Part shown: positions 6,095 to 54,790 of the stretch, piece by piece
Numbering within the stretch: the first letter of the stretch is position 1
Layout: the number at the start of each line of letters is the position of its first letter
Assembly (NCBI GenBank): GCA_008632985.1
Contig: QPGO01000211.1
Coordinates: 1 to 64,000 of the forward strand
Origin: Psammoneis japonica
Lineage: Eukaryota
Direction: 5' to 3'
DNA length: 64,000 nt
The notes under the pieces: model-generated
What the model saw: the letters and a program-made list of their open reading frames with translations, nothing else
Told to the model about the DNA's origin: nothing
The model's database searches: none
Translations under genes and position numbers: made by a program

Positions 6095-6870
6095 TCAGCA
6101 TGGTTTTTGTGTGAGAGGTTCTTCTTCTCTTGTTGCCAGTTTTCTCTCCTGCACCCACAGCTCTCTGGCGCATCCTGCCAGCAGGAGGATGGAGAGATGG
6201 GGGGCTCTTCTGGCTCCACAACCATCTTCATCTGGAACATGAAAATTCAGGTTCCTTTCTCTCCAACCAAGTTTTGCCGAGTCAGGGTGCCAGCGGGTGC
6301 AGCCCCAAAGTGCTCCCAGCACGCCCCCGCTGACATTGCAGCACCCCCTGGGCCTTTCCCATGCTCTGCCTCTCAGCCATGCACAGGAAGAGCTGCTTCT
6401 TTCTCTCTCTCTGTGCAACTGCACCACCATGCTTGTCATCTTCTTGCTGTGGGCATCTCTGCAGGTGGCGCTGAGAGCAAAGAGCAACTCTTCTCTCTTG
6501 TGCGCAGGGGCAGCGTGAGTGTGACTTCACAGCAAGCTGGCTGGAGGCATGGTGGTGGTCCAACAATGCCAAGTCTCCTGGCAACAAGTGCAATGAATGC
6601 ATTGCCTCCTCTGGCAAGTGTGCCAGGCTGGCAGCTGCTCTGCTAACAGCACTGCCAGCAGCCGTCAAGGCAGAAAGAGGAGGGACAGGCCGCGAAGCTT
6701 GGCATTGAAAATTTGCAAGAACATCCTGGCATGTTTCATCATTTGTGCATGGAGAGAAAAAGAAACGTGTGACCTTGCCATGCCATTGCCCAGACAACCC
6801 CGTTGGTGAATGCTGCTTGCAGCCCATGGCGAGAACAAAAAAGTCCAAGCCGCCCGACCGTCGCCCGCCT
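6095..6870. other. TpA-depleted degenerate island, probably a decayed repeat, between the divergent SF3A2 and IBTK-like genes
   Basis: Only one TA (CTAA at ~6644) in ~775 bp; CA/TG-rich; no credible protein. Confidence 0.7.
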
Positions 6871-7119
6871 GTATGTGCAGGTGCAGATTGAAGATTCAAA
6901 TTCGGTCCTCTGCAAAACGTCACGGTGTTCTGCAGAGCGAGAGGACGAGAGGGCAAGAAACAAAAACGACAGAGCAATGCAGAACTTTGACTGTCCATTC
7001 CTCACTGCTAAACGAGATTCATTCATGGAGAAGAAGTGTGTTATGAGAATATTTGCATACATCTGCTCGAGTATCAGATAGCAAAAAAGTGAAAGATTTA
7101 AAAAAGTGTTCATATTATC

Positions 7120-16737: not shown

Positions 16738-16780
16738 NNNNNNNNNNNNNNNNNNNNNNNNNNNNNNNNNNNNNNNNNNN
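16738..16780. other. Assembly gap (N run)
   Basis: Run of N seen directly. Confidence 1.
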
Positions 16781-24892: not shown

Positions 24893-26660
24893 ATGGGAAC
24901 AATGAATTGCTCCAAAGAAAGGCCAAAAAAGATGGATGGATTGGAGAAAGGAGACATGGAAGGCGAACACGAGCAAGAACAAGAACAAGCACCCCTCGAT
25001 CTGGCGAATCGCATTCATGAAACACAATTGGAGGAGGAAGACAGCAATGAAGACACTGACACAAGCATTCCGTTAACCATGTTGCAACCTGAAGGAGGTG
25101 CTGCTGAGGCAGACAGCATCACAACCATGTCCAAGTTGCAGTCTTGTCAGTCAAATGCAGGTCTCATGCTTTCACGGGTTGACAATGCAGAAATTGATCT
25201 GCCGAGAGCCAAACTTGCCCAGTCCAATGATGGGGAAAATGTTCGGCTCCAAGCAGAGGTTTCTCACCTTCGTCAGTCACATCTGGTTGCTCAGGCGGCT
25301 GAGGAGATTCGTGAAGACATGTCGGTTGACAATGAAAATGCAAAGAAAAAATGATGTCACAGACGTCTCATTGTTTTTGTTGTTCTCCTTTTGGCGATTG
25401 TTCTGGTTGTGGCTGTTGCAGTGCCCGTTTCTTCCAGCACCAACAGCAGCGGCGACATCAACATTGAGAATCCTGAAACACTGAAACAAGTTGCTGCATG
25501 GCAACCCATTGGACAAGTCTTGCACGGCAATGCCCAGGAGGATTTTTTTGGAACCTCCAACTCCTTGTCAAGGGACAGGACCACAGTGGCCATGGGAGCA
25601 TGTCGATTTGTCTCCGTGCATTGAATCAACCCTGACACTCAACAGTGGACACCCATTGTCAAGAATTGGTTGGATGAGCCATTGGTGACAACTTTGGGTG
25701 GTCCTTGTCATCAAATGGTGCGGGCACAATTTTGGCTGTTGGAGCATGTGATGTTGACAGTGACGGATTCAGTGCTGGTCAAGCTCAGGTGTTTGAATGC
25801 AATTCCTTCATGGACCACTGGCTCCAGCTTGGCAGTGACATTGATGGAGGGGTTTCGGGTGACAGGTTTGGTTTTTCATTGTCCACATCCGAGGTGGGAG
25901 ACATTCTTTCCATCGGAGCACCGTTTGATGACACAGGCAGCGGTCGCCATTCTGGATCAGTCCCATTGTTTCAACTCAAATGTGGTGCTTCCTTGTGGAA
26001 CCAACTTGGACAGATGCTGATTGGACAAGCTGCAGGTGATGAATTTGGAGCTTCAGTGTCCCTGAGCAGCTCAGGAAACATCGTTGACATTGGAGAACTC
26101 AAAAGTGGATTGATCGGAAGCTCTGCCGGTCCGATTTTGGCATTTGAATGCAATGCTTCAATCTCACAATGGGTTTCATTGGGCAATCCAATTGACGGAC
26201 AAATTGCTGATGGTCAGTTTGGAATTTCTGCTTCTCTCAATGACAGCGGCTTGATCATGGTGGTGGGCGCATCTGGAAGCAACAAGAGAGTGTCAGTTCA
26301 TGCCCTCAACTGCACATTGTGACATGGATGCAACGTGGCCAAACACTGCTTGCTCCGCAGCGAGGAGACAATTTTGGTGGATCCATGTTGCTGAATGGGA
26401 ATGGAGCTGTCTTGGTTGTTGGGAGTGATTCTCATGATGTCAATGGATCAGTGAATGAGGGTCAAGTTTCAATCTTTCAATGTGACACCAACACAGTGTA
26501 ATGGAGTTGAATGGGCAATCACACAAATGGCACGAGTCTGAGTTTGATCATTTTGGACATGCCGTGTCCTTGTCGGCAAACAGAAGTGTTGTTGCAGTTG
26601 GTGTGTGGGAGAGAGGTGTCAATTTCGACCAATCGGGGTTGGCACATTTGTTCACAGTAA
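24893..26660 (+). pseudogene. Decayed FG-GAP-like repeat membrane protein (copy B, head-to-head paralogue of copy A); a third fragment lies at ~26800-26960
   Basis: Shares LAQSNDxEN, the TM segment and WLQLGSDIDG..GDRFGFSLS / WNQLGQMLIGQAAGDEFGASVSLSSSG with copy A; stops and frameshifts. Confidence 0.75.
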
Positions 26661-27923
26661 AAATTAGAGCCTTGATTTTTGCCCTTTGCGGTTTGACTTG
26701 GTCCAATCCACCTCTGGTCATGAGTGTTGATTGTCACAAAGCCCACAATGGCACGTCAATGTTGACACTGGTTGAAACCAGAACACATTGCAAGCAAAGC
26801 TTTGGATCCAATCAATGGACAAATCACCAATGGTTGGTTTGGGTTGTCTGCTTCTCTTGATGACAGCAGTTTAACAATGACAGTGAGTGCACCTGAAGGC
26901 AATGAAAGTGTGTTGGTTTACATCCATGACCATGAAATGTCAACATGGAAACATTTGCCATTCAGCTTGGTCCCAGCTGGTGGCATGGCAGGAGCATTGA
27001 TTGTCTGACAATGACACAGCAACCTTGCAAGTGGTCATGGCCAGGTGCCCACACAAGAATGAATGACCACCTTGACATCTTCCATCACCAGAAAACCCTT
27101 GTGGCCCATCAAGGTTAAGGTTTTCACAATGTGCTGGCTTTGCTGTTTCTCATTGAGAAACTGTGCTTTGTTGAGGAATGTGGGCTGAACAAGAATTGCA
27201 GACTCAAAACGAAACTTGGGCACCTGCAATTGTGCATCAATCTCCTGTGTTTGTTTGGCACATCATCCTTCATGGAGTGTTCTTCTGATCATCCTCCTTC
27301 CACCAATTTGCACCTTTTGTCACACTTCTTTGCCTGGTGGACAAAGGAGGTTGGTTGAAACAGCGCTGGCTTTGGGCACAGGCTTGTTCCCACACCTGCC
27401 TGAAGCAGGTGTGTGGGGCACTGAGGACAATGTCAACAATGCACTTGCATTGGGCATTGGGCATTGCTTCATTGTTGGCAGTGCTGAATGACTCCTGTTG
27501 AAAACAATTGGGTCAATCACACTGGTGCTTTTGGTGGCCATCATCATGATGTGCTGTCTGCACCTGAGAGCTTCTTTTTCAAGCAAAAAGCACTTGACTG
27601 CCAAAGTGCAAAACAACAACACAATGTGCTGGCAGCATTTCAGACAGGAGCTCTCTTTTGAAAGTGACACAGCAACATCATCAATTGCACAGAGCTGTTC
27701 AAGGAGAAAACACTGTGCACACTGGCACACTTGAGAGAGTTCAAGCAGGATTTTTTTTTGTTTCAAGCATTTTTGGCTTTGTCATGGTGTGCAAAAGCTG
27801 CCAATGGCATTCTTGTGGCTGGTTTTGATAGAGATCCTTGTGTCGGTGCAGGAATGACACTGCCGCTGAGACCCCCCCCACACCAGGAGAATTGTGATCC
27901 CTGTGAGTCCGGGTGCACTGTTC

Positions 27924-28370
27924 TGCAATGTGCAGCTGCTGACAAGAGCCAATGCATCATGGCAACGTGTCACAGCCTTTAAATGTCACAAAGGGCGTGA
28001 CAAAAACAACCTTTTGTCTGCATGCATGCTGCATCATGAATTCACAGCGGAGTGGTTCATCGCAACCATTGGGCAGGAGACCAGGGGTTCGAAACCCTGA
28101 GTGGGAGTTGTCTGCAGCAACGTTGATCACTGTCAAACGCGCAAAACTCTGTGCAGTTCTGCATGTTCCTTCGCACGTACCCACACTGTTCTGCCAAAAC
28201 CGTGCAGTGTCAGTGCACGCCAGTAAAGAGCCGCATGGATGCGTGACACATGGGGAGGAGTGCAACGCACAGCTGCTGACAAGAGTCAATGCATCATGGT
28301 GACGTGTTGCAGCCTTTAAATGTCACAAAGGGCATGACAAAAACAACCTTTTGTCTGCATGCATGCTGCA
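27924..28370. repeat. ~110-bp direct repeat (27924-28033 and 28261-28370) downstream of the copia RNase H remnant
   Basis: cagctgctgacaagag...cctttaaatgtcacaaaggg...gcatgcatgctgca occurs twice. Confidence 0.9.
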
Positions 28371-31009: not shown

Positions 31010-32990
31010 CATTGCAACAAACTTTCTCCCGCTGATGCCGATGCCCTTTGCCAAGCCCTGTCCTTTCTCAACCCAACCAACAACCCTGCCATGCAACCAG
31101 AAATCACCACTGGCATCCGTTTTCTTGGCCAACCAATCGGCTCTACCAAATTCGCTTCAAATTTCCTGATGGACAAAGCAGAAACTTTCACCTCACCGAC
31201 AAACAAACTCAAAGCACCCCATTTCACAAATGTGCAATTCCATCCATTACACACCTCCTTGCCGCAGACGTTTGTCACAACCTGATGCACAACACCAACT
31301 GCCCCAACCCCTTCGAATGGGCCTCCCCCTTCAAAGACACCATCATCAGCCACTCACTCCGATTTCTCTCATGCCCTGCTGAAACAACTGCACCTCTCCT
31401 GTCGGCAGCCCATCTTGTTGCCACCCTCCCAGTCTCCCTCAGCGGCGTCGGATGCCACGACATCTCTGCTGCTGCCATCCTTTCCTTTGTCACCTCCCTT
31501 GCCCATTCCATCCGCTGCACCAAACATGGCATCCCACTTGCCGGTGACCAACTCTTCCACCTCCCCCAAAGCTGTTCCACTGCCCTTGGCTCCTGGTCTA
31601 ATCTACAATCCAAACTTTCACTCTGTGCCATCTTCAAGCACCATGCTCCCCCAAAGCTGTTCCACTGCCCTTGGCTCCTGGTCCAATCTACAATCCAAAC
31701 TTTCACTCTGTGCCATCTTCAAGCACTGTGCTCCCATCCTCTTCCAATGTGACTCACCATCCTTTGAGTCCCTCAGACACTCTGTCGAAAACCACAACCC
31801 ACGTGGCCTTGCCCAATGACTCCACCACTGTCATCACAAACACAGCATGCTCTCATAAATCCTGAACAACTCTGCCATCCAGCCAGCTCTCCCATCCCTT
31901 CTTTCTCCCCTTGCAAGTTTGTGCCTTCACTCCCTCTCAAGACTTCACCCATCCAACAGATTGCCCTCTGCATCACTCACCCTCCTTCTTCTGCAAAAGC
32001 TCCGACTCCCTGCTGTCTCTTCTGATTTTCTTTCCAAAGACTGTCCTTGTGGCTGCACCTGACCAGATCCATGTGGCAATCATGCATTCACCTGCATCAA
32101 AATGCACAAAGCCCCACTCTTGAACCATCTTCGTGACACCCTTTGCACGATCATTGAAACCCTGGGCCCTCTCAGCGGCCTGTGCCGAACCTGCCAACAA
32201 GTTTTTCTCAACCCAACCAGTCTTCTGGCCAATCATCCTCTTAAACGCCCCACTGACATTGGAGCACAACTCATTCCCGGCTCCACCCTCCCTGACGCCC
32301 CATCTGCACATCGATTTCTCGCCATTGATGTTGCCGCACCTCCAGCTCCCCCCCCCCCCCCACCTCCTGCACCTGGTTTGCCTGCCCCTGAAAACCCTCT
32401 TGCCAAGGCTCACCTCAGCAGTGCTTGGGACAAGCTGCTTGGCCGCACAACATCTGCAGCCTGCCACTTAGACATCATCAATGCCGTCAACCATGCTGGC
32501 TTGTTCCTTCTCCCTTTTGCCATCCACCACCTCAGTGGCGTTGGACACCATTTCCATGTTTTCTTTTTTGGCCAATCTGCCACGTCATCCTCTCCAATGC
32601 CTCCTCTCCCACCCAAACCACCCTGGACAAACCCATCTGACCTTTCCCACTCCCAAGCTTCCTTCTCGGCATGCAAAAACTCCCTTCCAGCACCCTCCAA
32701 CTTTCTCACCCGTGCCAACACTGCCTGGAGCAACACATCTCTCCTGACCGACTCGGCGACTCACATCACACCGCTGCTCCCCTTCTGTGGGCATCCCAAA
32801 TCCTGAGCTCAAACTTCAGCTTTGCCCTTTCATCTCACCTCTCGAACTGCCAACAACTCCTTCTCACACACCCAACTGTCGCCAACACATCCAATGCACA
32901 CCCGTCCATCCACACCATCAGCCAATCCTTTTTCTCTTCACCACCCAGCGTGCCACACGCGACTCTCCCTCCAACCAACCACACATCTCC
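31010..32990 (+). mobile_element. Non-LTR retrotransposon 3' remnant with restriction-like endonuclease (CRE/R2-type architecture)
   Basis: GIRFLGQPIGS (end of RT); LPVSLSGVG; CPCG...DPCGNHAFTC..HK...NHLRD Zn knuckle at ~32040-32140; RPTDI...AIDV (REL PD..D motif). Confidence 0.75.
31561..31730 (+). repeat. 85-bp tandem duplication inside the non-LTR remnant
   Basis: Units 31561-31645 and 31646-31730; ctccc microhomology at the junction. Confidence 0.95.
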
Positions 32991-34899: not shown

Positions 34900-37800
34900 A
34901 GTGCACCAAGTTGACGATAATTCAAAAACAAAAACCGGCCTTGTCGTAGAACAAAAACAAAAACACCCCTTACACACATTTCCACACCAAACCACGCATG
35001 TGCATGTGGGGAGCCACAAGCCAACAATGCCGGCTTCAGTCGACAGCAGCAAAAACAAAATGGGCAAGACACACAATGGCGCGTTTGAATCCATTTGTGA
35101 CGGCAATTGTCAATCAATCATGACGCAAGTCAATGCAGTCATGGCTGCTCAGTCAAGGCAAGCCCAGAACCAAGTCCAGATGGCTGAGGCGATCTCTCAG
35201 ACGCTAACTGCGGAAGCTAGAGACAAGATCATCGCCAAGAGTGAGCAATGCAAGATCAACAACATACAAGTTGGTGCACTGTTCTTCAAGTTACTCACCC
35301 AGAAGGCCATCGTGGACACTCGCTCAACTGCAAACTGCTTCGGCAAGAACTTGTCCAGCCTTGACTTGCACATGTCAACCTGCAACTCAAACATCAAAGA
35401 GTTCAACAAGTGTGTCAAACTCAACCATGATGGCCTCAGAGCTGGGGGAGAAGGCTGCGATGACCCAGTCATCAACCCATTCAAAGGTTACGCAGCAGCT
35501 GGCAACCAAGCATTCATCAAGTGCATGGCTGACATTGAACAGAAGTGTGACGATGGTGAGGACCACACTCCGGAACAAGTCATGCAACTGGCTCTCAACA
35601 AGTGCACCAATCTTGATCAAGCAGAGAACTGGGGAGCACTCTCTCCAGAGCAAGAAAGGATTGTTGCACTCACCGCGGAAGTCAAAACCATCAAGGACCA
35701 CAACCTCAAGCTCTCCAAGGCTCTCAAGAGCACTCCTGACAAGTCCAAGGGAGGTGGCGGCAAGCAGAACTCCAAGAACAAGAGCAAGAACCCAAAGCGT
35801 GCCAAGAAACAGGACAAAGCCTGGAAGAAGACTCTGCCAAAGGACAGCAACCCCACAAAGACTGTCAATGGTCACAAGTGTCACCACAAGAGTCAGAAGG
35901 GATGCGCCTGCCATTGGTGCAAGTGCCACTCTGCTTGGGTGGCTCACTTGCCTGATGATCCGGGAGACAAAGGCTGTCAACTTCGCAAAGCTCAAGAATC
36001 TGAGAGCCGCTCATCCAACTCCAACAAGAAGGCATCCTGCACAAATGCTCTGGCCTCAATCATCAAGGACCTGGAGTCCAAGGAATGACTGATCCAGGAA
36101 GCATTCTGGACACAGGTGTTCTGCATGAAGGTGGCCCTCATCACGTTCACAATTGCCCTGGTCACCACGAGCTTCGTAGACACGATGACCCACTGTTGGT
36201 GCTCACAGTGTTCACGGCACTCAACCCACCAGAGAACAAGTGGAAAAGTGCATCCAAGTGAGCAATGACGTTGGGTGAGTGGATTGTTTCACAAATCCCA
36301 GCTGACGGCATGACTGGCAGATGCAAACCAAGGTGAAACAAGAGTCAACACTCACCGCGATGCATCACTCCCAAGAAGAAAGGCCATCCCACTCAAGTGG
36401 CACACAAAAGGCTCAATGCAAGATCACCTTTCACAAGACAGTCTACGCCAACTCCTCAACCACCACGACGCCATTCAAACAAGAGCTGAGGTTGGAACCA
36501 GCATCTTGTCCATGCAACCTGCACAATGTCGAATGACAGACCACACTTTGTCGGCAACGTCCTGCAAACAAGCAGATCAAAGGAGCAGGCAGATGGTTAG
36601 ATGCAGAAGGAGAAGGCACACTCAAGTGGTGCACCAAGGATGATGACGGACAGGTGCACATGATCACCATCTACGACGCACTGCATGTTCCCAACTCACC
36701 CATTTGCCTCCTCTGCCCTCAGCAATGGAGCCGTCAAGCACAGGATCATCACCCTGAACCACATGGAACAACTTCCTGGAACCAAGACAATGGTCTCCTG
36801 CTCATGTGGGATCAAAGGAAGCACACAAAGCTGGTCCCTTGGACCAACAATTCCAACGTTGCATGCTTCCGTTCCACACCCGGTGCTGCTGACTGCCGGG
36901 CATTTGCCTTTGCAGTGGATGCTGATGACAATGTTGAGACTGTTGAGCACGCAGCCCATCAGACGCACGTGACATCCACAGATGACAAAAGTGACTCAGA
37001 GTCCATGGATGCTGCAAATGACAAAGATGCCTTCACAAGTCCTGACGAGACAGGTCCTGACGAGACCCAAGGCACACGCAACAATGTTGATGAGGAAGTG
37101 CCACTGTTGTTCAAACCGATGGATGCTGCACACAGATCCAACTCACCTGATGAGAACCTCAAGGATCTGGTGACCCCAGAAGTCCAAACCTGCCTGCAAG
37201 ACCCCATCAAAGTCATCCCTGATGATGATGCCCTGGCGGCCACCGACAACCAAGCTGGCAGCTCCCAAAAGTCTGCCCGACGTAGATGCCCATAGACTTG
37301 CACTGGTTTTTCGTCAAAAGTCTGCCCGTTTGGAGTGCAGCTTCTGCACAATTTTTGCACCAGTGTGTCTCATGAACCGTGGACTTTTCTACGTGATTTT
37401 TTGTGCAGAATTCGTGCAACAGAAATCAAACCGAACATCTCACGAGGCAGCGGCCTTTTTGGGATTTGTTGTGCACACAATGCACCAGATTCTCGCATGT
37501 GGACACAAAGGTGGAAAAGACAAACAAACACACTGGGAACTTCAGCGAAATTCTACGTGCAATCGGGCAGACTTTTGTTGTGGGCAAACTTTTGGGAGCT
37601 GCCAGCAAGGTGAATTGTTGCGTTGGCACTGCTGTCTTGGACACCAATCATTCAAAATGACAAAGCTCCTGGCTGTGTTGGGTGTCCTCCTGCGACACCT
37701 CCTGAAGGTCAAGAAACCCAAATGTGCTGGCTGCCTCTGTGGCGCCATGACCAAACGCCCTTGGTGCACCAAGTCCAAATGGAGGTCAAACATGCATGTC

Positions 37801-38850
37801 GCTGCAAAGCCAGGGGAGGTCATGTCGGCAGATCAACTCAAAAGCTTGACCCCAGGCTTTGTCCCTCAACTCAAAGGGAGACCTGCAAAACAGCAATGCA
37901 GAGCAGCAACAGTGTTTGTTGATCACCATTCAAAACTGGGATGTGTGTTCCTGCAACGATCACTTGCCTCCAAAGAAACCCTGAAGGCCAAGCATGCTTT
38001 CAAAGCCTTTGCGAGACGACATCATGTCCAAATCAAACACTGCCATGCCAACAACGGTCAAGTTGCTGACAATGCTTTCACACAAGACGTTGAGAAACAG
38101 GGTCAGACAATGTCATGCTGTGGCATCAACACCCACTTTCAAAATGGCATTGCCGAGAAGCGAATCCGCAACCTGCAAGAACAGACTCACAAGCAGCTGC
38201 TGCACGCAAAAGCAAGATGGCCAACAGCCATCATTGAGATTAATCTCTGGCCAAGTGCACTGCACAATTCCAATGAGCTCAAGAACAACTCACGCAGCCA
38301 TGAAGATGGCAGCTCGCCAATCAAATGATTCGCCTCCATCAAAGTTGCTCCAAATCTCAAGCAACACCACACTTTTGGATGCCCAGTCTACGCACTGGAC
38401 AACTGACTGCAGAGTGGACAGAGAGCACCTGAGTGGCAATCAAGAGCAAGGTCAGGAATCAACTTGGGACCATCACCAAGACACACTGGATCAGTCAACA
38501 CAGTGCTCAATCTTGAGACGGGACTTGCCTCACCGCAGTTTCACGTCCAATTCACAATGACTTCTTTGAAACAGTGGGCCCTTCAGCAGGGAATGCACCG
38601 GCTTTCTTGCAATGGCAAACCGCACCAGGACTCAAGAAACAAAGAACATCAAGATTCAACATCTTCAAGACCCAAAAGGAAGTGAGGGAGCCATGCTCCA
38701 CTGTGCCAGTGCAGACCACTTTGGCGCCAGAACCCGATGTTCCGCAACAACTCAAAGATGAGCATTTTCCTGTTGTGGAGGACAAGATGCCAGAACCAGC
38801 AGGAGATGCACCAACTGAAGACACTCAGGAGATGGCAGTGTGTTGGAGCA
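34900..38850 (+). mobile_element. Diatom Ty1/copia (CoDi-like) retrotransposon remnant: gag, protease region, GAG-pre-integrase and integrase; RT absent
   Basis: Gag with WCxxHxxWxxH...C knuckle; GEGTLKW...DALHVPNSPICLLCPQQW; LLRWH..LGH...CAGC; SADQLKS, ATVFVDH, HFQNGIAEKRIR, GPSPRH...LETGLASPQFHV. Confidence 0.9.
37255..37605. mobile_element. 351-bp MITE inserted in the copia pol region
   Basis: 24-bp TIR ctggcagctcccaaaagt(c/t)tgccc; 4-bp TSD CAAG at 37251-37254 and 37606-37609; removing it restores D-N-Q-G-E-L-L-R-W-H. Confidence 0.9.
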
Positions 38851-38899
38851 TCTAAAATGAGTGGGGCAATGTCCGGAACCCAGAGCTGTTGAAGAGAAG

Positions 38900-41700
38900 A
38901 TGCTTCAACTTCTGAAATTGCATTGTGGTGTCAGCAGGTGCCTGTTGTGTTGTTGGATTGAAGTTTGTTGAGGACTTCCAGGCAAACCACGGCCACCACA
39001 GCAACCAGGGCAAGTGCAACAAGTCACGCAGGAAACCTCACAGGATTCCCTTTTGGTGACATTGACTTGTTGTTGGTTTGACACTTGGCGTCAGATTCAC
39101 CATGGGAGGCAGAGTCAGATTTCACAATGGCACTGGTGTGGGAGGCATTGTTGGAATTGGTGCAGGAGGCAGAGTTGGTTTTGGCAATGGCAGTGGTGTC
39201 AGATCAATGGCAGAGGCCTGTGCAGAGTGGGTTTGAATGATGCCTGTGGCATGGGAGGCAATGATGGAATTGGCATTGGATGGAGAGACAGCTTTGGGGA
39301 TGGAGGTGGTGCAGAGTCAATTGTGGGAGGCGGAGTGGGTTGTGATTGCAACTGTGGTGTGTGGGAGGCAAAGACAGATTGGACGTCGGAGGAAGAGATG
39401 GTGGTGTCAGCAACAGAGGTGGTGTGGGGTCAGCTGCAGGAGGTGCAGTGGGTCTCAATGATGGGTTTGGCATCAGAGGCAGAGATGGCTTTGACAATGG
39501 AGGTGGTGTGGGGTCAATTGCAGGAAGAGGCACAGTGGGTTTTGGTGACATGATGGCAAAGTTGGAGGTGCACCTGGGCCAGACATTGGAGGGACTGCTG
39601 TGGTCTCTGGTCTTAGAAACACAAGAGCAGTCTGCATGACAGCAGCAGTTGGTGGTGGTGCTTCTGGTGCATTTGTTGTCACAGCTGCCAATGGTGGTGT
39701 CAAGGTGCTTGGTGGCGGGGTGAAAGTTGCTGCAGGCAAAGATGTTGTTGCTGCCAGTGCAAGACTTTTTGGCTGTGAGGTGGTGCTTTGACTTGGGGGC
39801 AAACTTGTTGGAGCACTGCCAGGAGTCAGTGTTGAGTCTGTTGGTGGAGCAATGTTTGACTGTGGAGTGGAGGAGGGAGAAGTGGGCAAATTCATTAAAG
39901 TCCCCACTGGAGTTGGAGAAGCTGCTGATGTGAGACTGTTGGGTTGGGGTGTCAAGGACAGATGTGGCAGCAGACTCATTGGAGATCTGGCTGGTGCCAA
40001 CATTGAATCTGTTGAGAGCTGTTTGGCATTGACACAGAGGTGGGAGATGGTGGAGATTTCATCAGAGGTTTGCCTGGAGTTGGGGCAGAGCCTGCAATTG
40101 GTGCCAATGCATTTGGCTTGGGTGCAGAGGATGGACAAGAACAAGGTGAATTCATTGGGAGTGGTTGGCCAGGCGACTGCTGGTTCAGATCCATTGGTGC
40201 TCTGACAATTTCAACAATGGACCCATTGGAGTCAATTGTGTGCAGCTCAGAAGTCACTGGGAACTCTTCAATCCCAATGTTGAGGAGCCACAGAGTCAAA
40301 ACTGTCTAAAACTTGGCTGCAGAAAATGATGTGAACTGCATTTTGATTTCTTCATTTCTCCTGTGAAGCTCATCTTCTGGGTGTGGCTTTTGCAAACAAA
40401 CAAGCCCTTCTCTTCACCAACTGATTCACTCATCTTGCTGTCAATCCCAGAGCCAAACACATGGGTTCAATTGAAGGGAACCCAGCATTGCACACAATTT
40501 TTGCTGTCCAACTGGCATCCATGAACAGCGCCATTCTGTTTCCACACAAGAGCAGCTCACAGTTTGCAAGCTAAACATTGCTGATGGATTGCCCTGTGCA
40601 TGTCTCTCAGCCTCCTGACATGTTGTTGTGCACTTCTTTGAATGTTGTTTCTGTCAGCTCTCTTTCTTCAAGCACAAATGGCCTTGCAGGTCATTCAAGG
40701 CAACATGATGCATGGCACTGATGTTGAGTTTGGTTTACATCACATTGCAACCCTTCCAATGAAGCAAGGCTTGAAGAGCTGTTTTTGTTCTCAGTTGCAA
40801 GAACCGCCCCTGATGTGACAGAGGCAGCAACAAGAACAGCCATCACAGCCACTGCTGATGCAATGGCTGCACCCATTCCTGTGCCCAGGCCAGTGGCTGT
40901 TGCTGCTCCAACTGTCATGGCCACTGTTGCACCAGCTGCCACAGCAGCTGCATTTGCCACAGCCTGAGTGGCCATTTCTTGCTGGTGAGCAACCACTTGT
41001 GCGCTGCAGCACAGAAATGGGACAATGACTGTGGGTCAGTTAAAGAATTGCTCAAATTAATCACAACAATGCACACACACATTGAACAAGCAACTTGTGC
41101 TGGCAGCACAGCTCCAGCTCCTCCTCCTCCTCCCTGTTCTTCTTGTGGTGCCACCATGCTTGAGGGGCACCCTTTCCATCTAACCCACACCAGCATCGTT
41201 GTCATCATCTGTTTTGTTGATGCTCTTTTTCAATTTTGTTGCTGCATGACTGACCATTCCCAAACCAGCCATGCCGGCAGTTGCAAAAAGAACCTTCCGT
41301 TTCATGTCGCTGCTGTCTTCTTCTTCCATGCTGGTGTGTTGCCATCATTGCTCTTGGCATTTGAATTTGATGTGCTGCCATCAGAGCTTCTGTCATGGCA
41401 GGCAGCAAAAACAAAAAGATCTAGAAAGACCAAAATGTTGAACACAAGCACACGTCATGAAGCAGCAAAAGGCAACATTTGGTTGGGTGGATGGACTCAC
41501 ACCGCACTTGCCAAATCTTGTTCTGAACCTTGTGGCATCAGAACCTTCATGGCTGCTTTCTTCAGAAGAGGAGTCATTCTTCATGCTGATGAATGCTGCA
41601 AATGCTTAACAACACTGGCAATTGATGTTTTTGGGCAGGTGTTTTGCTCTTGTTGTGACAGAAGCATCATCCAAAATGGTGCTTTTTGATTTTCTGTGAC
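38900..41700 (-). pseudogene. Decayed Pro/Thr/Ser-rich (mucin/PT-repeat) surface-protein gene with an Ala-rich TM segment
   Basis: PTxxPT-rich fragments (39200-40150); AAAVAAGATVAMTVGAATATGLGTGMGAAIASAVAVMAVLV; many stops; TA-depleted. Confidence 0.5.
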
Positions 41701-42486
41701 TTTGCTTCATTCACAAGTGGAAGTAAAAAGTCGCCAGCCAGCCAACTCCGTGACACCTCCTTGCATGACTTGTCAACGTGATTCACAGCTTAAAATTTGC
41801 ACAAAAGTGTGCTACAAAGTTGTGGAATTTGAATTCTATGTCCAGCTGCTAATTGGAAAGGCAACAGATAATCATTGCTCCAAAATTCAAAATTCTCAAA
41901 TCGGGTGCGCGCCATCTTTTTTGTCACAATGCACAGCACAAACAAACGCCAACACCACATCTAACAATCAACAACGCGCAGCAAGCACAGCAAACATCGC
42001 CCAAAAACATTGGCAGCCACCATGGACTTTGACGATCCCGCTTCTTTTACTCTCATCAGTCGCTCCAACAGGTGCCCAACAATCAAGACATTGACAACGA
42101 CACTGCAACTCCCGCTCCAACAGACGAGTCGGCTGTCGACGGCAATGCCGCATAACGTCACTTTCGCGAATTTCTTCGCAACTGCCGCCAGGGCCCTAAC
42201 CGTCACTGGTGACGTGACCCTCTCTTGAAAATGCATCGCAGAGAAGTGCAATAACGGAATCAGAGCCGTCTCTTGAAGAGAATCAAGTGGTTGTTGCAAT
42301 AATTGTGTAGCTCTGACTCATAAAGTACAGTTTGTGGCTTGCATTTAGTTCACAGAAATATGACGGTCGCGTATCTCTAGGGCTAAACACTATTCAAACG
42401 ACCTTTTGTTCGTCTGGTAATGCAGAACGGCCAAGGGGCATTCGTGTCAACATGGAAAAATGGTAAACTATGCCTTATCACAGTTC

Positions 42487-43832
42487 TCACCCCGGGTCGA
42501 GAATAAGCGGAAAGGGTGCATTCTCCTGCTCTACCATGCGTGCCGTGAGTTCTGCACCATATTGAAATGCCACAAAACACAAAGCGGCTGGACCAGAAGC
42601 ACCCAGGACTGTTCTTAGTCTGGGTGGCGGAGGAAGCCTGTTGTGCAGGAACGGATTCAATAATGATCTTACGACTCGATTCTTTGTCATTGCTGGAGCC
42701 ATTACCTGTACGGATGCTGTGTCTGATTTTTGTCGCTTCCAATGGCTTGTATAATGTCCAACGACGTGATGAACTTGCCCCGCAAATCCACCCGCCAAAA
42801 AGGCAGCAGTGAGAGTCACCGGGGTAACATCCAGCGCATCCTCCGTTGCTGCTTGTTTGTTCTTTTGCTTTTCTTTCCTGATTAAATTGTACCGTTCTAA
42901 CTCATCAAAAATGATTGGAACCCATTTGGACCCAGACAAGAGATAGTCGTGAAATTCTTGCAGTAGCAGTCGCCGAAAGGATTCAAAACACCCAAAGAGG
43001 CATGCATAACCCACCACATGATGAATGGTTCTACGAAACAAAAATCTCGTGTCAAGGTGCTGCTGTACCCATTTTCGATCCTTCAGGTTTCTGAACGGCA
43101 CATGGGCTAGCACCTCCCATGTCGTCATGACGGCGGATTGAGCAATGCCCGCACAGGCTCCAGCTTTGAAATGCGCCGACAAAGGTATCATCATGTCGTC
43201 TTGCGGTTGGTGGTGCGTCTCGTCGTGTTTTGCTGTTTTTTCTTTTGCAATACACTTTGCACAATGACGATCTACATTAAACTCATACATTCCAAATACC
43301 GTAACACCGAGAGCAACGTTCTTCGCCAAGGCTGATCACAGAGACCGAGAGTGTGAGATACAAGTTGAAACTTCGAAAGAACTACAGTAGGACTACTGTA
43401 GCCCTATATTGCTACGATCATCGCGACAGTAGTTCAACTCACATTCTGCTTGTCTCAAAATTGGATGGCCTTTGGGTGTGTGCTTCGCTGTAGTCACAGC
43501 AACAGAAGACCCAGCTGTTCGGCTTCCTAACGTAAGAAATGCTTTCTTTCTTACAAAGCCCAGCACAGCATTTTTCTTTAACGCAATCAACGCGGCTATT
43601 GTTATCAAAAGCAGAATGGATGCAAAATATGCGGCATGGGATGTTGCAAGTCGATAACAACCATTCCGACTTGTGTATAGGCTAAACACTACTTACCTTT
43701 TGCAGCACCCGCAAACAACATGGCCAAGGAAGTTGTTGTACGTAAGTCTTCTGAAACTACGGGTTGATGCGCGGGTTTGCGTTTCTTCTCTTTGACCGCC
43801 GTCAACAGCGGCTCCATGTTACGTCCGTCCAT
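42487..43832 (-). CDS. Divergent mitochondrial-carrier-like membrane protein, multi-exon
   Basis: AHFKAGACAGIAQSAVMTTWE, GYACLFGCFE and AAFLAGGFAG helix motifs; upstream exons with a GT donor at ~43696; exon limits approximate. Confidence 0.55.
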
Positions 43833-44000
43833 CTTTTTTGTTGTGTTTTCTAGCCTCGACAATCAATATTCAAAACGGCAAAACGACGAAACACAATGAT
43901 GCGTCTGATCTCAGTTTTGCCTTTCTCATCGTTCAATTACCATCAAAAGCCATCGTCACCTGCTGCGAGAGTAAAAAAAAAAACACGTATAAACCGCAAA

Positions 44001-45510
44001 CCGCGATCTTTTGCGTGTCGTCACGCGTTTGTCGCGCGCGCGGTGCGCGCACCTTTTGGGCAGATAAAGCAGGTGAATCTAAACCAGATAGATCTCACCA
44101 GAACGCGCAAGAAGAAAAAAGAATGGTGTTGAAAAAGTGAGAACCAAAACGAAAAAACGGGAAAACAACAACAATGTGGATGATCGCATTGCTTGAAAAC
44201 CGATGAAAAATCATTTAAGTGTTCATGATCGAATCGAACATAAAAAGGTCACCTGGAACTGGAGGAGGACAGAGCATGTGTCTGCCGCAGCCAAGGCACA
44301 GCCAGCAGCTTCCAACAGAGCTCCCCAGCTTCCAACATGATTCTCCCATGTGTCCAACAGAACTGAGGATGCGCGGAGGACCCTGACTATCTCTCTGCCC
44401 CTCTGCAAGAAAGATGAAAAGATTGGACAAATCAACAAAGCCCAGCAGCTTGGAGTTTTTTGTCAGCCTCTCTTTCTTGCCCCAGCTGACACACCACCTG
44501 CTCCTGATCGATTGCGGCACATCCACGCTGACACACCACCTGCTCCTGATCGATTGTGGCACATCCATCAACTGCGTCGTTGCAACACTGTAATCAACAA
44601 TGCACAGCAATGCTTGCACCGCGATCTTTTGCGTCATCGTTCGTCGTCGCGTCCGTCGCGCGCGCGCCTTTTGGGCAGACAAAGCAGGTGCATCTAAACC
44701 AGATTGGATCTCACCAGAACATGCAAAAAGAATGGTGTTGAAAAAGTGAGAACCAAAACAAAAAAATGGGAAAACAACAACAACAGCAACAATGTAGATG
44801 ATCACATTGTTGGAGGCATTCATCAAGACTTTGGGTGAAACTGTGGGCAAGCAGCAAAAATTGTGAATGAGAACAGCTCACACCACCAGCAGCTCACTCT
44901 CCTCTCTCGTCCCTGAAACAAAAAAGGCTGCACAACGACCCTCCATCTCCAAGCAAGCAAGGCCAGCAGCCAGACTCTCAAGATGTTTCTGCATGTTTGT
45001 TTGGAAACACTGTGGCAGAAGAATTGGGCAGTGGTGCGTGCCACCTTTGTGGTGTGCCTTGCGCACATGACGCTGGGTGTGGCGCGCTCTTGGTTGCATC
45101 ACATGTGTTGATGATGTTTTGTGTGAGATGAGAAAAGACTGGCTTTGACATCCCTTGCTGGAGTGCTGCCACATGGAGAGATGGAGGCGGTGTGGCTCCC
45201 CTCATGGCACCTGGGCCGCACCCCCGCACATTGTGCGCCACAAGACCGCCGTGCCACACAGCCAAGAAGGTGCGCCCCCCCCCAGCAGCAGCAGCCTCCA
45301 ACAGAGCTTCCCAGATCCCAACATGATTCTCCCATGTGTCCACCAGAACTGAGGATGTTTGGAGGACCGTGACTGTCTCTCTGCCCCTCTGCAAGAAAGA
45401 TGAAAAGATTGGACAAATCAACAAGGCCGAGCAGCTTGGAGCTTTTGTCAGCCTCCTTTTTTGCCCCAGCTGATGTGCCACATGCTCCTGATCGATTGTG
45501 GCACGTCCAT
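44001..45510. repeat. Patchwork of local duplications: 44001-44185 matches 44619-44810; ~44300-44525 matches ~45285-45510; 42-bp tandem at 44485-44568
   Basis: Copies aligned by eye; TA-depleted; probably remnants of one non-autonomous repeat family. Confidence 0.85.
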
Positions 45511-45896
45511 GCGAGATGTGAGAGGAGAGAGGAGGTGTGTGTGCAATGTCGTTTGTCTGGCAGCACATTTTGTGTTGATTGGTCCAATCTTCCGCGGGTT
45601 GGGGCTTTCAACCGCTCGTGACTTCCGACCATGAAGCGCGACCAAAGTTTCACGACATGACGTCATCTGTCCGTTGGATTTAAGATTTTTGGCAGTCACG
45701 TTTGCAACACACACAAAGAAAGGAAGATGGCGGCAAACGTGTTCTGTTCTATCGCTTTGTGTCAATTGTATGACAGAACATGACTTGGACGTTTCAATAC
45801 AATGATTTTCAATCCATATGTTGCCCATGTGGAGGTCCTTTATCATCAATCAATCCCGCAAAATCGATCCCCAATCGAGAGAACTCTTTCTTGAAA

Positions 45897-47398
45897 ATGG
45901 GACCACACTCTCACATTGACTTACTCCTACTGGACGACGATATTGTATCAGGCGATATATTTTGCATACATAAGCACTCTGGAATCATGATTGATGTTTT
46001 GGATACCTATCATAGCTGTGTGCATCCAGATGAGATATCCGATGACGAAGCGGAAGAGAATGACAACATCATAGATTGGTCTCCGATTGCAGTACAGAAG
46101 TTGTGCATGGGCAGTCGACGACTACGTGCCGAGGCCCTTCTAACGGCCTTTGAAACACCAAAGCCAATGCTTGAACAGCATAATGTACAAGTAGAATGCC
46201 ATGAGTTTGGAGAGAACCCCGTTGATGCCATGACCGTCGCGCAACACGATCTGTGGGGCCAAGTCCGCAACACTGTTCGAAGTGACACAGTTATTGTTGC
46301 TGTGGAGGTAAGAGAAACTGCGATCATTTTCTTGGATAACATGACCGATCTTTGTAACCAAAGCATGCTTTGTTGGCGCGCTATCGTAGGCATCTGCAAT
46401 TTGTGAAAATGACATCTTTGTTCAACAAGGAATGCTGAACGAGGATGTTCCTCTTCCTTTTGTTCCTGGATGTAACTTTGTGGGTATTATTCATTACAGC
46501 GGCCCCGATGCGCAAGAGAATTTTGGGTTCAAACAGGGTGATCGCGTTGCATCCATCACCAAGTTTGGTGGCAATGCGAAATACGTGTCGGTGGCAGCTG
46601 ATAAGCTTGTTCACGTCCCTAAACGAGTAGATCCGCCCGAGGTTGCAGCCGTCCTTACAACGTATCTTCCAGCTTTTCAGGCTCTGCAACATGGTTGCAT
46701 AAAGAGGAGTCGATATTCTCCATCTAGCCTTGACAACAAAAAGGTTCTAGTGACGGACGGACTCAGTGCCGAGGGCCAGGCTGCGATACGAATGGCATTT
46801 TGGTCCGGGGCGTCCGCGGTATATGCAGTAGGGAAGAAAAAGAACCACCGTATGCTAAAGAGCTTGGGTGCGATACCACTTTTAGATCATCCGGATGATT
46901 GGCTTCCAAGAGTGGAGGGTAAAATGGATGTGGTTCTTCATTTTGAATTTCCTGTGAATTTGGATGACGCCAGGGCAGCCATGAAGCGAAAGGGACGATT
47001 GGTGTGTTTCGCCAAGCCCTCCACTGAGAAAGACCCGGGGTTCAGTTGGATACATGGAATCCAGTTATTTGTGGAGCAGTCGTCTCTCTCCATGATTAAG
47101 AGGGCATCACTGTATGATCCTCTCTTTAGTTTCAAATCGTTTCCCGAGCAGTTCAAGGTATACCCTGAAATGGAAACTCATCCTACAGAATGCCACGCCA
47201 TGCGGCATCTCACACTGATTTGCTTGTCATTCCTCTTTGCAGAGAGACCTAAAGTTCTTGCTGGCGTTATTATTAAAGCGACAAATTCGTCCGAAGATTG
47301 ACAGATTCATTCCTTTATCTGGGGTTGCAGACGCGTACAATGAAATACATGAGCGGATTGTGGACGGTTCCATTATTTGTGAACCATGGAAAGAATAG
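45897..47398 (+). CDS. MDR-family (quinone oxidoreductase/VAT1-like) oxidoreductase; introns 46308-46389 and 47158-47242
   Basis: PLPFVPGCNFVG, FKQGDRVASITKFGGNAKY, YLPAFQAL, KKVLVTDG; both introns in frame. Confidence 0.85.
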
Positions 47399-47481: not shown

Positions 47482-48386
47482 TTACGACATTACGTTGATA
47501 ACCTGTGCTTCTACGAGTCTTGTGAGCAGTTGTGCCTTTGTCCCTCCCATTGGAAGACCGTTCTGTCTTGCCATAGCTTTTAGATCACCAAGACTATACC
47601 TCGGCAGTGCCTCATCGACAAACAGTCTTTGTTGTTTCCACAACAATAAGGAAGCGTTTTCGCTTTCCAACTGTTGAATTCTTGCTTGAAGCTTGATCAA
47701 ATCGTCCTCTCCGCGGACCGCCGCTCTGGCGACTGCACGAACTTTCGGCTGCGATACCTCGACGGATCGTAGAGTCGCTCGACCCACCACTCGTGCCAGA
47801 GCACCTGACATGCATAAAAACGGCAAAGAAATCATAGTACATGAAACTGAGTCAACAGAGATTCATAGAAGACGTTCAGATAATCAGAACCAAACCAACC
47901 TGCCACGCTGTCCTCCTCCAGCGGATCGCCATTGGCCACCAGAAATACCAACGCCCACGTGATTGCAGCGAGAGGAAGGTTGTTCGATACACCAAAGTAC
48001 ACAGCCGTCGAAGCTACGCCACCAGCTGCAATAGCTACTGTAAAGGGAGAATAATAGGACGATATCTGTGCCGACTTGTCTGGGAATGATGTTTCGGGAG
48101 GAGTAACGACATCGTCACCCAGCAAATGTGTGCTCACACGCTTCATATCTAGCCGAGCACGGGTTGACGCCATTACCTCTCGTTCCAATGATGCCATTAT
48201 TTTATCCGTTTTTTTAGCATCACGACTGATGCCGAGTGGTCCAATTCTCGGACTGAATGACGATGCTGGACAACACAACGCCGTTTCTCGTCTGAGCTTT
48301 GTTGTCAATGATGAAGGATGAGCTGAGAAGCTTGCTGCACTCACAAGCAACAAGGCCAGCATTGCCAGCGTTAGCATGGCATTCAT
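47482..48386 (-). CDS. Plastid-targeted membrane protein with a C-terminal SAP domain; intron 47899-47805
   Basis: LLVSAAS|FSA presequence; TM hairpin; YSLGDLKAMARQNGLPMGGTKAQLLTRL SAP motif. Confidence 0.75.
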
Positions 48387-48559
48387 TCGCCGACTGCTAA
48401 TGAATGCCTGAACGCTGAGTCGAAGTAGTGTCATCTTACTTGTCATTGCCAACTGTGATGACTTCGCGTCATGGTGATTTGAACGCACCCTCCGTGATTT
48501 TCAATTTTCAGCCAATCACATTGCGGCATTTCGGCATGCTTGTTCGAATCGTCGGACTC

Positions 48560-49200
48560 AATCATCCTCTCTGGAAGCGGCTCACATGGGCAGATGCATG
48601 GCGGTGTGTGTTGTTTTCGTTTGGAGAGCCCCGATCAGACCAACTCTCTTGTTGCTGTCAAGAGAGTGACTCCTGCAAGGCTCCCTGGCTCCTCAAGTGC
48701 AACAAGTCAGCATGGCAAGAAGAAATTTTCAACTGACAACTTGGCAGCACCATGACATTCTAAGAAGGAGCTGCGCATGGCTCTGTCAACCATGCAAACA
48801 ACCCACCTTGTTTGCTGGCTGGCACCAGATCCCCACAGCAACTAATGCTGCAGTTGTTAACAACTTCTGATGGAAAGCAGCACCAATTTCTGCCTTTGCT
48901 GCAGGCATGTGGGGCAGTGAAGGCATGGTGAAACTGCTCCTTTGGAGCACAGGAACTTGAGACATGGGATGGAGACATGCCATGAGTGCCGACTGGACCT
49001 TTCCACCACCAAAAGAGCATCTGTCTTGATGGAAGCTCATGTGCAGCAACTTCTGACTTGCCATGACATTCATCCAGCTGACTGGGCCCATGTTGGCCAA
49101 GCTGGGGAACAGCTGCGCAGACACTTCTGCTAAAGTGGGAGTCTTTTGCTCCTTGGTTTGTAAAAAGCTGGATCTCTTTGGTGACATGAAGGCTGGAAGC
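48560..49200. other. TpA-depleted degenerate island
   Basis: About 5 TA in 640 bp, mostly CTAA/TTAA; CA/TG-rich. Confidence 0.6.
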
Positions 49201-50959: not shown

Positions 50960-52200
50960 GGTGAAATGGGGATTGTCCAAAATGGGGTGAACGTTTCAAA
51001 CTACACATGAAGGAACATGATGTGTCCAGGAACAGCTTGACAATGTTTTCCGTCCAACTGTCAGTTTTGGGCGTTCTCCACATCTCGGTCCCACTCCTTG
51101 AGCCACACAATGCTCTTTCATGCAGCATTTTTGAGTTGAAACACAGTGAAGCATTGCACTGTTCAAGTGCAGTGCTGCAATCCCCCACTTGCCCAACTTT
51201 GGAAAACTGAGTGTGTTTGTTTTGATGCTGACACCCATTTTTTTTCTGTTGCTGAAATTTTCTGTGGTCGGGAGCGAAAAACCGGCTTTTGGCAAAGCCG
51301 CCACAAACAAAAACAACTCATTTCTCATCTTTTCTTTTTAGATCAAACGATGTACACATCTTTGAAAGAAAGTTGAGGTGACATCATCTGTCTGTAAATT
51401 TGAGCCAGAAACATGTGCAAAATGCCTGGCGCTGCAAATCAAGTGGCTTTCCGACACTTTGAGCCTGGCAAAACTGGGCTCTGGAGAGAAAAGCAGGGCA
51501 TGCAAAGAAAGTGCTGTGCTGCCAGTGTGCCCCAAGTGCTGGTGTGGCAGCATGGTGCTTCTGTTGCTTTTTGTTGCTGGCACCAATCTTGTTTCCAAAC
51601 AAAAGTTTCACACCATGTGATGTGCACCCACTTCCAGCTGGCAACTCACATCACACCACAGTTCCTGGCCGCCTCTGCCCCACAAAAAGGTGCTTGGTTT
51701 TGTTTCCTCCAAACAGATCATGCATTTTGTCTTAGCACCCCTGCAATTTTGGTTTTGGGCCAGCTCTTCTTTGTGCTTCTCAGCCGCATCTCTTGGGGCA
51801 ATTGTGCCCTGAATTTTTGTTGCCAATGCCCCCCCCAGATTTTCCTCCTCTTTGTGCAAGGAGGTTTTGTCTCTTTTTTGCAGAGCACACCACAGAGTGC
51901 AGCTCTCTCTCATCTGGGCCTGGCAGAGAAAAAGAGGAGAGAGCAAAAAAGAGAACATTGCCAGTGCTTGCAAAAAAGTCCCTCCCCCCCCTCCAAACAA
52001 GAGCGAGAGAGAGAGAGAGAGAGAGGAGGGCATGTGTGGGCACCAAAAAAGAAGAAGAAGAGAACAAAGCCGGGGTTTGGGGCCAACCACTTTTAGAATG
52101 ATCAAATTTGCAAGCCATCTTTTTGTGTGCAAAGCAGCACACAATGACAGTCACACACAGTGGGACGACTCGCTCAATCTCCTTGAGCTTTGAGCACATC
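50960..52200. other. TpA-depleted degenerate island with an (AG)n tract at ~52005-52025
   Basis: About 6 TA in 1.24 kb; spurious Cys/His-rich ORFs. Confidence 0.65.
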
Positions 52201-52586
52201 TCATGCGCCACGATGATTCGGGATGAGCTTGGAACAACTGTCGCGGCCCAGTTGAACTAACAGCGAGACACAGCCGTTCGGACAAACAAACTGTCGGACA
52301 TCGTCATGCTCAAATAAATGCGTCATGTGAGAAGCGATGACGTCATTTTTTCTGACGCAATCAAAAAGTCAAACCAAAAAGCGACCACATCACCCTGCCA
52401 TCACCCATCACAATCCCATCAAAATGTTGTGTTCGAAGAACGTCAATCATACTAACTGTATAGGTCGCCATAACAAGAAGCTGCTGTTGTTCTCATTTCA
52501 AGTCATAGGTGGAACGAGATAGATCCGCATCGTTGTGATTGTCAAGTTAATTTCGCTTTCTTAACGCGCATCTCATCGAGAAAACA

Positions 52587-53899: not shown

Positions 53900-54790
53900 A
53901 TCAGCCTTTGCCAATCATGACCCGCCAGCTGTAGAATGTGAACCTGAGTGCTTGACCACATTTGTCAGAGCACCTTGGCCTGAAGAAATTCTGGCTTTGT
54001 GTCTTCAAAATCACATCACAACTGCACCGATGTGCAGAGCCTTCAGAGTTCCATGCACGTCAAGGAACTGCTCTTCTCCAACTTGGTGGTTGAACGTCAC
54101 AAGTGAAGAGAGGCTTCCCCTCCTGCACCCGCAGTTCAATGGCCTCTGATTGTTTGAAAGCTTGAAACTGATCAGCTTGGAGTGGCAGATCAACACTAAA
54201 GCTGAGCTTCAAGTCAAGTTTGGTCTTGAACAAATTTGTGTCTTTCACAAGCTGATGCTCCAGCTTTGTCTTGTTTGCCAACATCAGTGGTGGCCAGCAC
54301 TTCCTGCTGGCAGTGGTCATCTTTGCTGTGGAAAGATGCAGCAGCATTTCATGTCTGAGACATGAGGCATGCAGTGTGGTGCAAGTGTGGCAACTTGCTT
54401 CCTTGCCAGTGAGCACAATGGTGATGTGATGCTTGACGCTCAACGACGCTCTCTGGCTTTGCCAGATGCACAAGACAGAAAAGCCAAGCACGGGGGTTGG
54501 TGGTGGAATGAACCATGAGCAAAATGAACAAACCCCAAAGAGCAATTTTTGGCACACATGGCTTTCCCTCCAAACCAGATCATGCACCCTGGAATTGGGA
54601 GTTGCCTCGCTCCCGCGCACTCTCAGGCTGGGAGAGCGAAAAATCCACACACACCACAGAAACTCCCTGAACATCAAAAAGTGTTCCTCTTGGGGAGACA
54701 GGCCAACACCAAGAAGTTTGGAGTGACATGCCTCTCTTTTCTATTTTTGAACCTGCTCTGTGTTTGAACACAAACTTGACGGAAGCAGCA
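53900..54790. other. TpA-depleted degenerate island (decayed coding-like sequence)
   Basis: About 3 TA in 890 bp. Confidence 0.6.

Follow-up and report, generated by a model that had tools for sequence, protein, structure and literature searches.

TpA- and CpG-depleted islands around a local duplication in diatom DNA: probable TpA-directed hypermutation with CpG decay

Introduction

A 64-kb stretch of diatom nuclear DNA (Psammoneis japonica, contig QPGO01000211.1, positions 1 to 64,000; hereafter the window, to which all of our analysis refers) carries, in an intergenic spacer at 44.0-45.7 kb, a non-coding unit of ~0.6-0.9 kb that has been duplicated locally and in direct orientation. The two copies, units A and B, differ at several places where one has the dinucleotide TA and the other CA or TG, which raises the question of whether TA was lost there by mutation directed at TpA, and independently in each copy. 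The best reading, and in our judgment a likely one, is that TpA-to-TpG/CpA hypermutation acted on silenced DNA together with CpG decay, as in Bigelowiella natans, here in a diatom. The evidence that carries this reading comes from the composition of six islands (one of which holds the duplication), from the balance of dinucleotides lost and gained in them, and from a Copia-type polyprotein relic and its relatives; the A/B pair by itself gives no demonstration of TA loss.

TA and CG depletion in six islands

Observed/expected (o/e) ratios of TA were bimodal over 64 one-kb windows: 24 lay below 0.2 and 38 above 0.3, with 2 in between (0.2-0.3). The TA-depleted windows were grouped in six islands (Table 1) totaling 26,107 bases (26.1 of 64 kb, or 41% of the window), a regional pattern like that of B. 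natans. Within the islands, o/e was 0.08 for TA, 0.36 for CG, 1.66 for CA, and 1.78 for TG, compared with 0.52, 0.99, 1.20, and 1.22, respectively, in the remaining 37,850 bases; for the other 12 dinucleotides, islands and background differed by at most 0.12. Positions 44001-45510 gave 0.10 for TA, 1.37 for CA, and 1.84 for TG. Across the one-kb windows, TA was inversely correlated with CA/TG (Spearman, -0.81) and positively with CG (+0.75). Island counts came close to a mass balance, with a CA+TG excess of ~1650 dinucleotides against a TA+CG deficit of ~1740, and CA and TG were both raised (2897 vs 2709).

The TA poverty of the island at 44000-45681 far exceeds chance: its longest TA-free run, 886 bases, has a probability of ~7e-15 at the background TA frequency, and the longest runs in the window reach 1666 and 1425 bases. 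Being non-coding does not by itself account for the islands, because background DNA outside long open reading frames (ORFs) is unaffected (TA, 0.59; CG, 0.99). Stretches within 39043-42072, which single contigs cover with 1-2 differing letters, had a TA o/e of 0.04-0.16, older and more diverged copies of them being possible. Three ORFs lie in the region of the duplication, all on the minus strand (44215-44850, 44978-45568, and 45099-45653; 184-211 amino acids), and their length reflects the near absence of TAA and TAG. These ORFs matched 0 Pfam families, and no Rfam match was found over 43000-46500. TA-free islands, almost without TAA and TAG stops, thus give rise to long spurious ORFs, of which those at 44.0-45.7 kb are examples.

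Among the surviving island TA (n=122 with readable flanks), TTAA has 4.6 times its background share and TTAG/CTAA 2.6-3.0 times, while GTAT/ATAC and CTAT are nearly gone and no ATAT is left. This pattern suggests that TA followed by a pyrimidine (TAY) may have been preferentially removed.

Table 1. Positions of islands, relics, duplicate units, and individual differences in the window
Feature	Position	Strand	Description
Small island	6093-6872		TA/CG-depletion signature; between SF3A2-like and RCC1-like genes
Largest island	20948-41607		TA/CG depletion; contains Copia-type relic and FG-GAP_2 pseudogene relics
Island holding units A and B	44000-45681		9 TA vs 51 expected at window background level
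Small island	48215-49131		TA/CG-depletion signature
Small island	51002-52258		TA/CG-depletion signature
Small island	53932-54742		TA/CG-depletion signature
FG-GAP_2 repeat pseudogene relic	22469-23673	-	Inverted partner of 25607-26857; in 1666-base TA-free stretch
FG-GAP_2 repeat pseudogene relic	25607-26857	+	In 1425-base TA-free stretch
Copia-type polyprotein relic	36561-38781	+	Pol beta-barrel, gag-pre-integrase, integrase region
Tyr column of relic	36684		Window copy His; P0121 Cys; P0228 no residue
Tyr column of relic	37897		Window copy Cys; P0121 Tyr; P0228 His
Tyr column of relic	38389		Window copy Tyr; P0121 Cys; P0228 Cys
Unit A, part 1	44000-44196		CG-rich head, then A-rich; ~80% identical to 44618-44814
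Unit A, part 2	44303-44528		226-column match to 45289-45512, 89.4% identity
42-bp tandem doubling in unit A	44485-44568		Period 42, 2.0 copies, 97% matches
Unit B, part 1	44618-44814		Partner of 44000-44196
Unit B-only stretch	44815-45288		474 unrelated bases between unit B parts; zero TA
Unit B, part 2	45289-45512		Partner of 44303-44528
TA vs CA, unit A vs B	44065 / 44680		TA / CA
TA/TG site, unit A vs B	44089 / 44705		Fourth TA-type site; adjoins 1-base indel
CpG-type difference, unit A vs B	44104 / 44720		CGCG / CATG
TG vs TA, unit A vs B	44177 / 44795		TG / TA
TA vs TG, unit A vs B	44388 / 45374		TA / TG
CA vs TG doublets, unit A vs B	44490 / 45474		CACA / TGTG

Polarity of substitutions in the Copia-type relic

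The Copia-type relic lies 6-8 kb from units A and B and has many homologs against which the direction of change can be judged. At 260 conserved columns it was compared with 120 homologs, and 56 mismatches were classified: single TA>TG changes made up 10 and TA>CA changes 2, CG>CA changes 16 and CG>TG changes 4, and the rest were other transitions (6), transversions (10), and multi-step changes (8). None of the 56 creates a TA. A:T>G:C changes were concentrated at TpA, as in B. natans (12/16; binomial P=4e-5), and G:C>A:T changes at CpG (20/22). The nine conserved Tyr columns read Cys in six cases (TGY), His in one (CAT), Ser in one, and Tyr in one, whereas 35 of the 37 Phe, His, and Asn columns kept their residue (Fisher P=1.5e-6). 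Over all 120 homologs, 811 of the 1015 cells in Tyr columns are Tyr and 37 are Cys or His; the TA-free state of the window copy is taken as derived because Tyr so dominates these cells.

By this protein comparison, a change from TA to TG or CA is supported by the relic. The original prediction, that TA is ancestral and CA/TG derived (the reverse of repeat-induced point mutation [RIP]), therefore finds support here, and again in paralogous contigs, while the A/B duplicates themselves lend it nothing. Over 37000-39000, the paralog comparison yielded 34 best-supported differences, a small sample from the best 40 of 586 differences. Among these, 37501, 37513, and 38955 are TG in the window and TA in the majority of paralogous contigs, the window has CA or TG where they have CG at ~13 sites, and in 0 cases does it have TA where they have CA or TG.

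Within the covered stretch, summed contig depth peaked at 38806-39106 (1486, with up to 35 contigs at 38991), and many contig ends hang loose at 38974-39072; a high-copy element fragment probably has its edge here.

Independent changes in related copies and island duplicates

The two closest relatives of the relic, database proteins P0121 and P0228, have Cys or His at 7/9 and 4/5 Tyr columns, respectively. From the residues at the Tyr columns listed in Table 1, the window copy, P0121, and P0228 changed independently: different tyrosines were lost, to Cys or to His. The original prediction of independent hits in different copies accordingly holds for the Copia-type family and finds no matching TA-type excess in the A/B pair. 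With 0.8-1.2% Tyr (median, 3.2%) and a richness in Cys, P0121 and P0228 are evidently translated hypermutated Copia-type relics. The Tyr>Cys/His footprint was seen among the 120 homologs in these two only, and perhaps in P0180, and the distribution of the TpA footprint is predicted to be lineage-restricted. Protein databases would thus come to contain hypermutated transposon relics in the guise of "proteins" that are, like these two, poor in Tyr and rich in Cys, TA-free relics being predicted as genes because their long ORFs are kept. Copies that differ mostly by transitions also escape repeat finders.

Besides the Copia-type relic, the islands contain broken FG-GAP_2 genes, two of which form an inverted duplicate (22584-23586 vs 25607-26592; ~70% identical). 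In this pair, 62 of the 161 transitions form 31 CA-vs-TG doublets, where ~4.5 are expected; such doublets are to be expected of the island process because a hypermutable TA or CG ancestor resolves independently on either strand. Ile>Val changes in the FG-GAP relics were preceded by T in 9/11 cases (P=1e-4), and this context count is all that was used from the comparison with FG-GAP homologs. The relics were unsuited to the Tyr test, their 120 homologs being too distant (~40% identity) and internally repetitive (Tyr>Phe, 7; Cys, 2; His, 1).

Two further repeats were noted among the islands. A 110-base direct repeat (27924-28033 vs 28261-28370) has 9 differences, all of them transitions (3 CA/TG doublets, 2 CpG-type changes, 1 other, and 0 transversions), and looks like a young duplicate altered almost only by the island process. 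An 85-bp tandem repeat in the large island (31561-31735; 2.1 copies) has 3 differences, which comprise a CA/TG doublet and a single CA/TA site.

Differences between units A and B

Over 416 aligned positions, units A and B are identical at 371 (89%) and differ by 31 transitions and 14 transversions. When coded as purine/pyrimidine, 44000-44176 and 44618-44785 are 91.6% identical and the second parts of the units 96.5%. The stretch found only in unit B has as its counterpart in unit A ~106 unrelated bases (44197-44302), and the 42-bp unit that is doubled in A is single in B (45469-45510). The CG-rich heads, partly alternating (CG)n (44017-44052 and 44643-44669), have kept their CpG despite lying in a CpG-poor island.

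The TA/CA, TA/TG, and CACA/TGTG differences named in the original prediction are all present in the DNA, and so is the CpG decay that it reported between the copies: CpG-type transitions affect 12/87 sites versus 7/197 elsewhere (P=0.003) and are the only class in excess. What failed is the claim that the duplicates show the change from TA to CA or TG "directly." When 31 transitions and 13 transversions were placed randomly on either copy, 5.1-5.3 TA-vs-CA/TG differences were expected, and 4 were observed (P[>=4]=0.78-0.81); random transitions often produce such differences because the region is very rich in CA and TG. By context, TA-type transitions were found at 4/62 sites and others at 7/197 (Fisher P=0.30). 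CA-vs-TG doublets numbered 2 against 0.4 expected (P ~0.05). Substitutions between two copies cannot be polarised, and it is just as possible that the four unshared TA are new; the chance that these four sites represent TA lost after the duplication is about even. Overall, the observation is real and partly confirmed, its TA-type differences not going beyond chance, and its interpretation is partly supported.

A third copy of the units was sought. None was found within the window by nucleotide comparison or by purine/pyrimidine-coded BLAST, which returned, besides the known pair, only short chance-level matches (two-letter E-values are not meaningful), and no additional copy of at least 80% likeness was seen in the contigs of sequencing run X1, the one run covering the locus (16 of 375 contig pieces). 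Within the window and these contigs, the 44.0-45.5 kb unit thus lacks the further copies of a dispersed repeat or transposon family. Summed word depth in run X1 was 56-82 over 43923-45728, compared with 60.6 for single-contig DNA beside it and 307-1486 across 37000-39106, summed contig depth over the pieces seen not being a copy number. The 42-bp tandem unit was rejected as a third copy for polarising, since it covers no TA-type site and is ambiguous at one CG/TG site. The closest relatives of a housekeeping gene in the protein collection are 53% identical at most, so an alignable non-coding orthologue of the spacer is not to be expected. Contigs of run X1 have CA where the window has TG at 44615-44616 (an adjacent double change) and CA where it has TA at 41869; both places are counted as island DNA, and island-type variation between alleles or strains could account for the differences.

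The alternative that survives best places the hypermutation in the past: it would have been over before the local duplication, the unshared TA would be new through ordinary C>T or G>A changes at the abundant CA and TG, and since then only CpG decay would have been elevated. This is possible, if doubtful. It accounts for a number of TA-type differences no higher than random placement predicts, for a TA-type rate that does not stand out from other contexts, and for an excess limited to CpG-type changes. However, the CACA/TGTG doublets require a hypermutable CG or TA ancestor that changed after the split, and the run X1 differences at 44615-44616 and 41869 hint at recent change. A weak pointer (n=5) in the same direction is that the sole shared TA has the context CTAA, which is over-represented where island TA survived, whereas the unshared TA lie in ATAA, ATAG, GTAG, and CTAT, which are under-represented there.

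Under TpA-directed hypermutation with CpG decay, the 44.0-45.7 kb island would have been made by the process seen in the Copia-type relic, and some of the four TA-type differences, together with the CACA/TGTG doublet, would have arisen after the A/B duplication. The fuller proposition, that diatoms, or this lineage, have an active, DNA-level, TpA-directed A:T>G:C hypermutation accompanied by CpG methylation decay and aimed at DNA that is silenced, mobile, or foreign, still running and having struck A and B independently, could in our estimate go either way. Its continued activity would follow from the TG/CA doublets and TA/CA sites by which alleles or copies are distinguished within islands.

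Proposed mechanism and known systems

In the proposed mechanism, both self-complementary pyrimidine-purine steps of the islands, TpA and CpG, would be pushed to CpA/TpG. CpG would be lost by the ordinary decay of methylated cytosine and TpA by an A:T-to-G:C transition confined to TpA, which would appear as TA>TG on one strand and as TA>CA if the other strand was affected. An enzyme may be responsible, possibly an ADAT2/TadA-type adenine deaminase or some other enzyme, and silencing or methylation may mark the target.

Several points weigh against this reading. The TA-type differences of the A/B pair are no commoner than random transitions give, and the island may have formed before A and B were duplicated, with their unshared TA possibly new. 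The evidence from the Copia-type relic draws on protein consensus rather than ancestral DNA, and the relic's changes are lopsided (TA>TG outnumbering TA>CA by 10 to 2 and CG>CA outnumbering CG>TG by 16 to 4); the imbalance could reflect a strand-specific step, the CpG ratio being biased by the visibility of amino-acid changes. The paralog comparison is small, and its three TA>TG sites are in TAG contexts, at odds with a strict TAY rule. More broadly, the support is a historical footprint in one window, and the putative enzyme, the methylation, and de novo mutation are all inferential for this diatom.

The closest known system is that of the chlorarachniophyte B. natans. In its mutation-accumulation lines, mutations are reported to arise ~1000 times faster in two integrated viral regions than elsewhere (10.64898/2026.01.13.699255), and A>G or T>C accounts for nearly every change, all at TpA (Mettrop et al., 10.64898/2026.01.13.699255). 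The authors propose an ADAT2-like adenine deaminase, with DNA adenine deamination directed against foreign or silenced sequence, and cite amphioxus and Trypanosoma as cases in which ADAT2 edits DNA (10.64898/2026.01.13.699255). The two systems share A:T>G:C transitions confined to TpA, yielding TpG or CpA by strand, an enrichment of TpA-depleted sequence for transposon-type domains, and single-copy DNA as a possible target. They differ in host (a rhizarian there, a diatom and thus a stramenopile here) and in evidence, since the rate was measured de novo there and the footprint here is historical alone. The depletion is also far deeper here (TA o/e of 0.08 over 26 kb versus a Rho of 0.45 in their giant-virus region), and it coincides with CpG depletion, whereas CpG is not mentioned in the accessible part of 10.64898/2026.01.13.699255.

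CpG methylation of a diatom Copia element has been noted (Maumus et al. 2009, PMC2806351). The island CG o/e, the relic's 20/22, and the CpG-type excess in the A/B pair are all as methylation-driven decay would have them, and the dominance of CG>TG/CA among the relic's G:C>A:T changes resembles 5-methylcytosine deamination of transposons. Unlike such decay, however, the island process removes TpA, which CpG decay cannot do, and CpG decay covers only about half of the CA/TG excess.

A further alternative, which we regard as improbable, is A-to-I editing of retrotransposon transcripts by an ADAR- or ADAT-like enzyme, fixed by reverse transcription, in place of mutation in the DNA itself. The outcome, A>G with U or T favoured before the edited A, is like that of ADAR/ADAT adenosine deamination, and known RNA adenosine deaminases prefer U before the edited A (10.64898/2026.01.13.699255); the sense-strand bias of the relic (TA>TG over TA>CA) also keeps a strand-specific component possible. 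Yet the footprint here is in chromosomal DNA and on both strands, the enzyme being putative, and the islands include DNA that is not retroelement (the FG-GAP relics, the 44.0-45.7 kb spacer, and the single-contig stretches at 39043-42072). CA and TG are both enriched over the islands, lost tyrosines became His as well as Cys in related Copia-type copies, and CA/TG doublets separate local DNA duplicates.

It is more unlikely still that the islands are foreign or compositionally distinct sequence that was TA-poor from the start, or that TA was selected against, with no TA-directed mutation. At 44.0-45.7 kb an earlier state was not visible from any available relative, which leaves room for such an origin; against it stand the prevalence of Tyr in the Tyr columns of the Copia-type homologs and the match between the CA+TG excess and the TA+CG deficit.

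RIP, known from Neurospora and other fungi, changes C to T at CpA, creates TpA, and acts on duplicated DNA. The island process resembles it as a transition-only, dinucleotide-specific hypermutation of transposon copies and duplicated DNA in which copies are altered at different sites. The chemistry is the reverse, A>G at TpA destroying TpA, and there is no sign that duplication is needed, the single-contig stretches at 39043-42072 being equally depleted. A RIP-like decay in which TA is the derived state has in its favour only that copies differ at TA/CA and TA/TG sites and is excluded for practical purposes, since the islands show loss of TpA and gain of CpA/TpG, the opposite of what RIP leaves, conserved Tyr is now Cys or His, and no mismatch of the relic creates a TA.

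If TpA-directed hypermutation is the correct reading, the diatom would represent a second, phylogenetically distant algal group with TpA-specific hypermutation, so far described only in 2026 from Bigelowiella. The mechanism would then extend from a chlorarachniophyte to stramenopiles, suggesting an old genome defence common to the stramenopile-alveolate-rhizarian (SAR) group, and the phenomenon would be testable (deaminase, target mark, and rate) in diatoms, which have genetic tools. Our literature searches on TpA depletion or hypermutation in diatoms found no report, and neither subject is treated in the accessible parts of SPLASH (PMC9258296) and Maumus et al. 2009 (PMC2806351).

Host genes and flanks of the spacer

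The window has a high density of genes with few introns. The best named relatives of its JmjC gene in protein comparison are from Thalassiosira and Cyclotella species (~50% identity), and a Vac14 fragment has its nearest Atlas cluster in Bacillariophyta. On one side of the spacer at 44000-45681 lies a minus-strand gene, whose contig cover reaches 43958, and on the other a plus-strand ORF from 45780, so that the genes on its two sides are in divergent orientation.

The minus-strand gene (42435-43958) apparently has at least two introns (43332-43442 and 43596-43696), which are skipped by contigs of run X2 (joints 43331 to 43443 and 43595 to 43697). Run X2 looks transcript-derived because the skipped stretches end CT..AC, that is, GT..AG on the minus strand. 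The sequencing runs are of one study and one sample, with no RNA entry listed. Positions 44224-45728 were without cover in run X2, which was not used as evidence of silence. Elsewhere in the window, the JmjC/cupin gene contains a 43-N assembly gap at 16738-16780.

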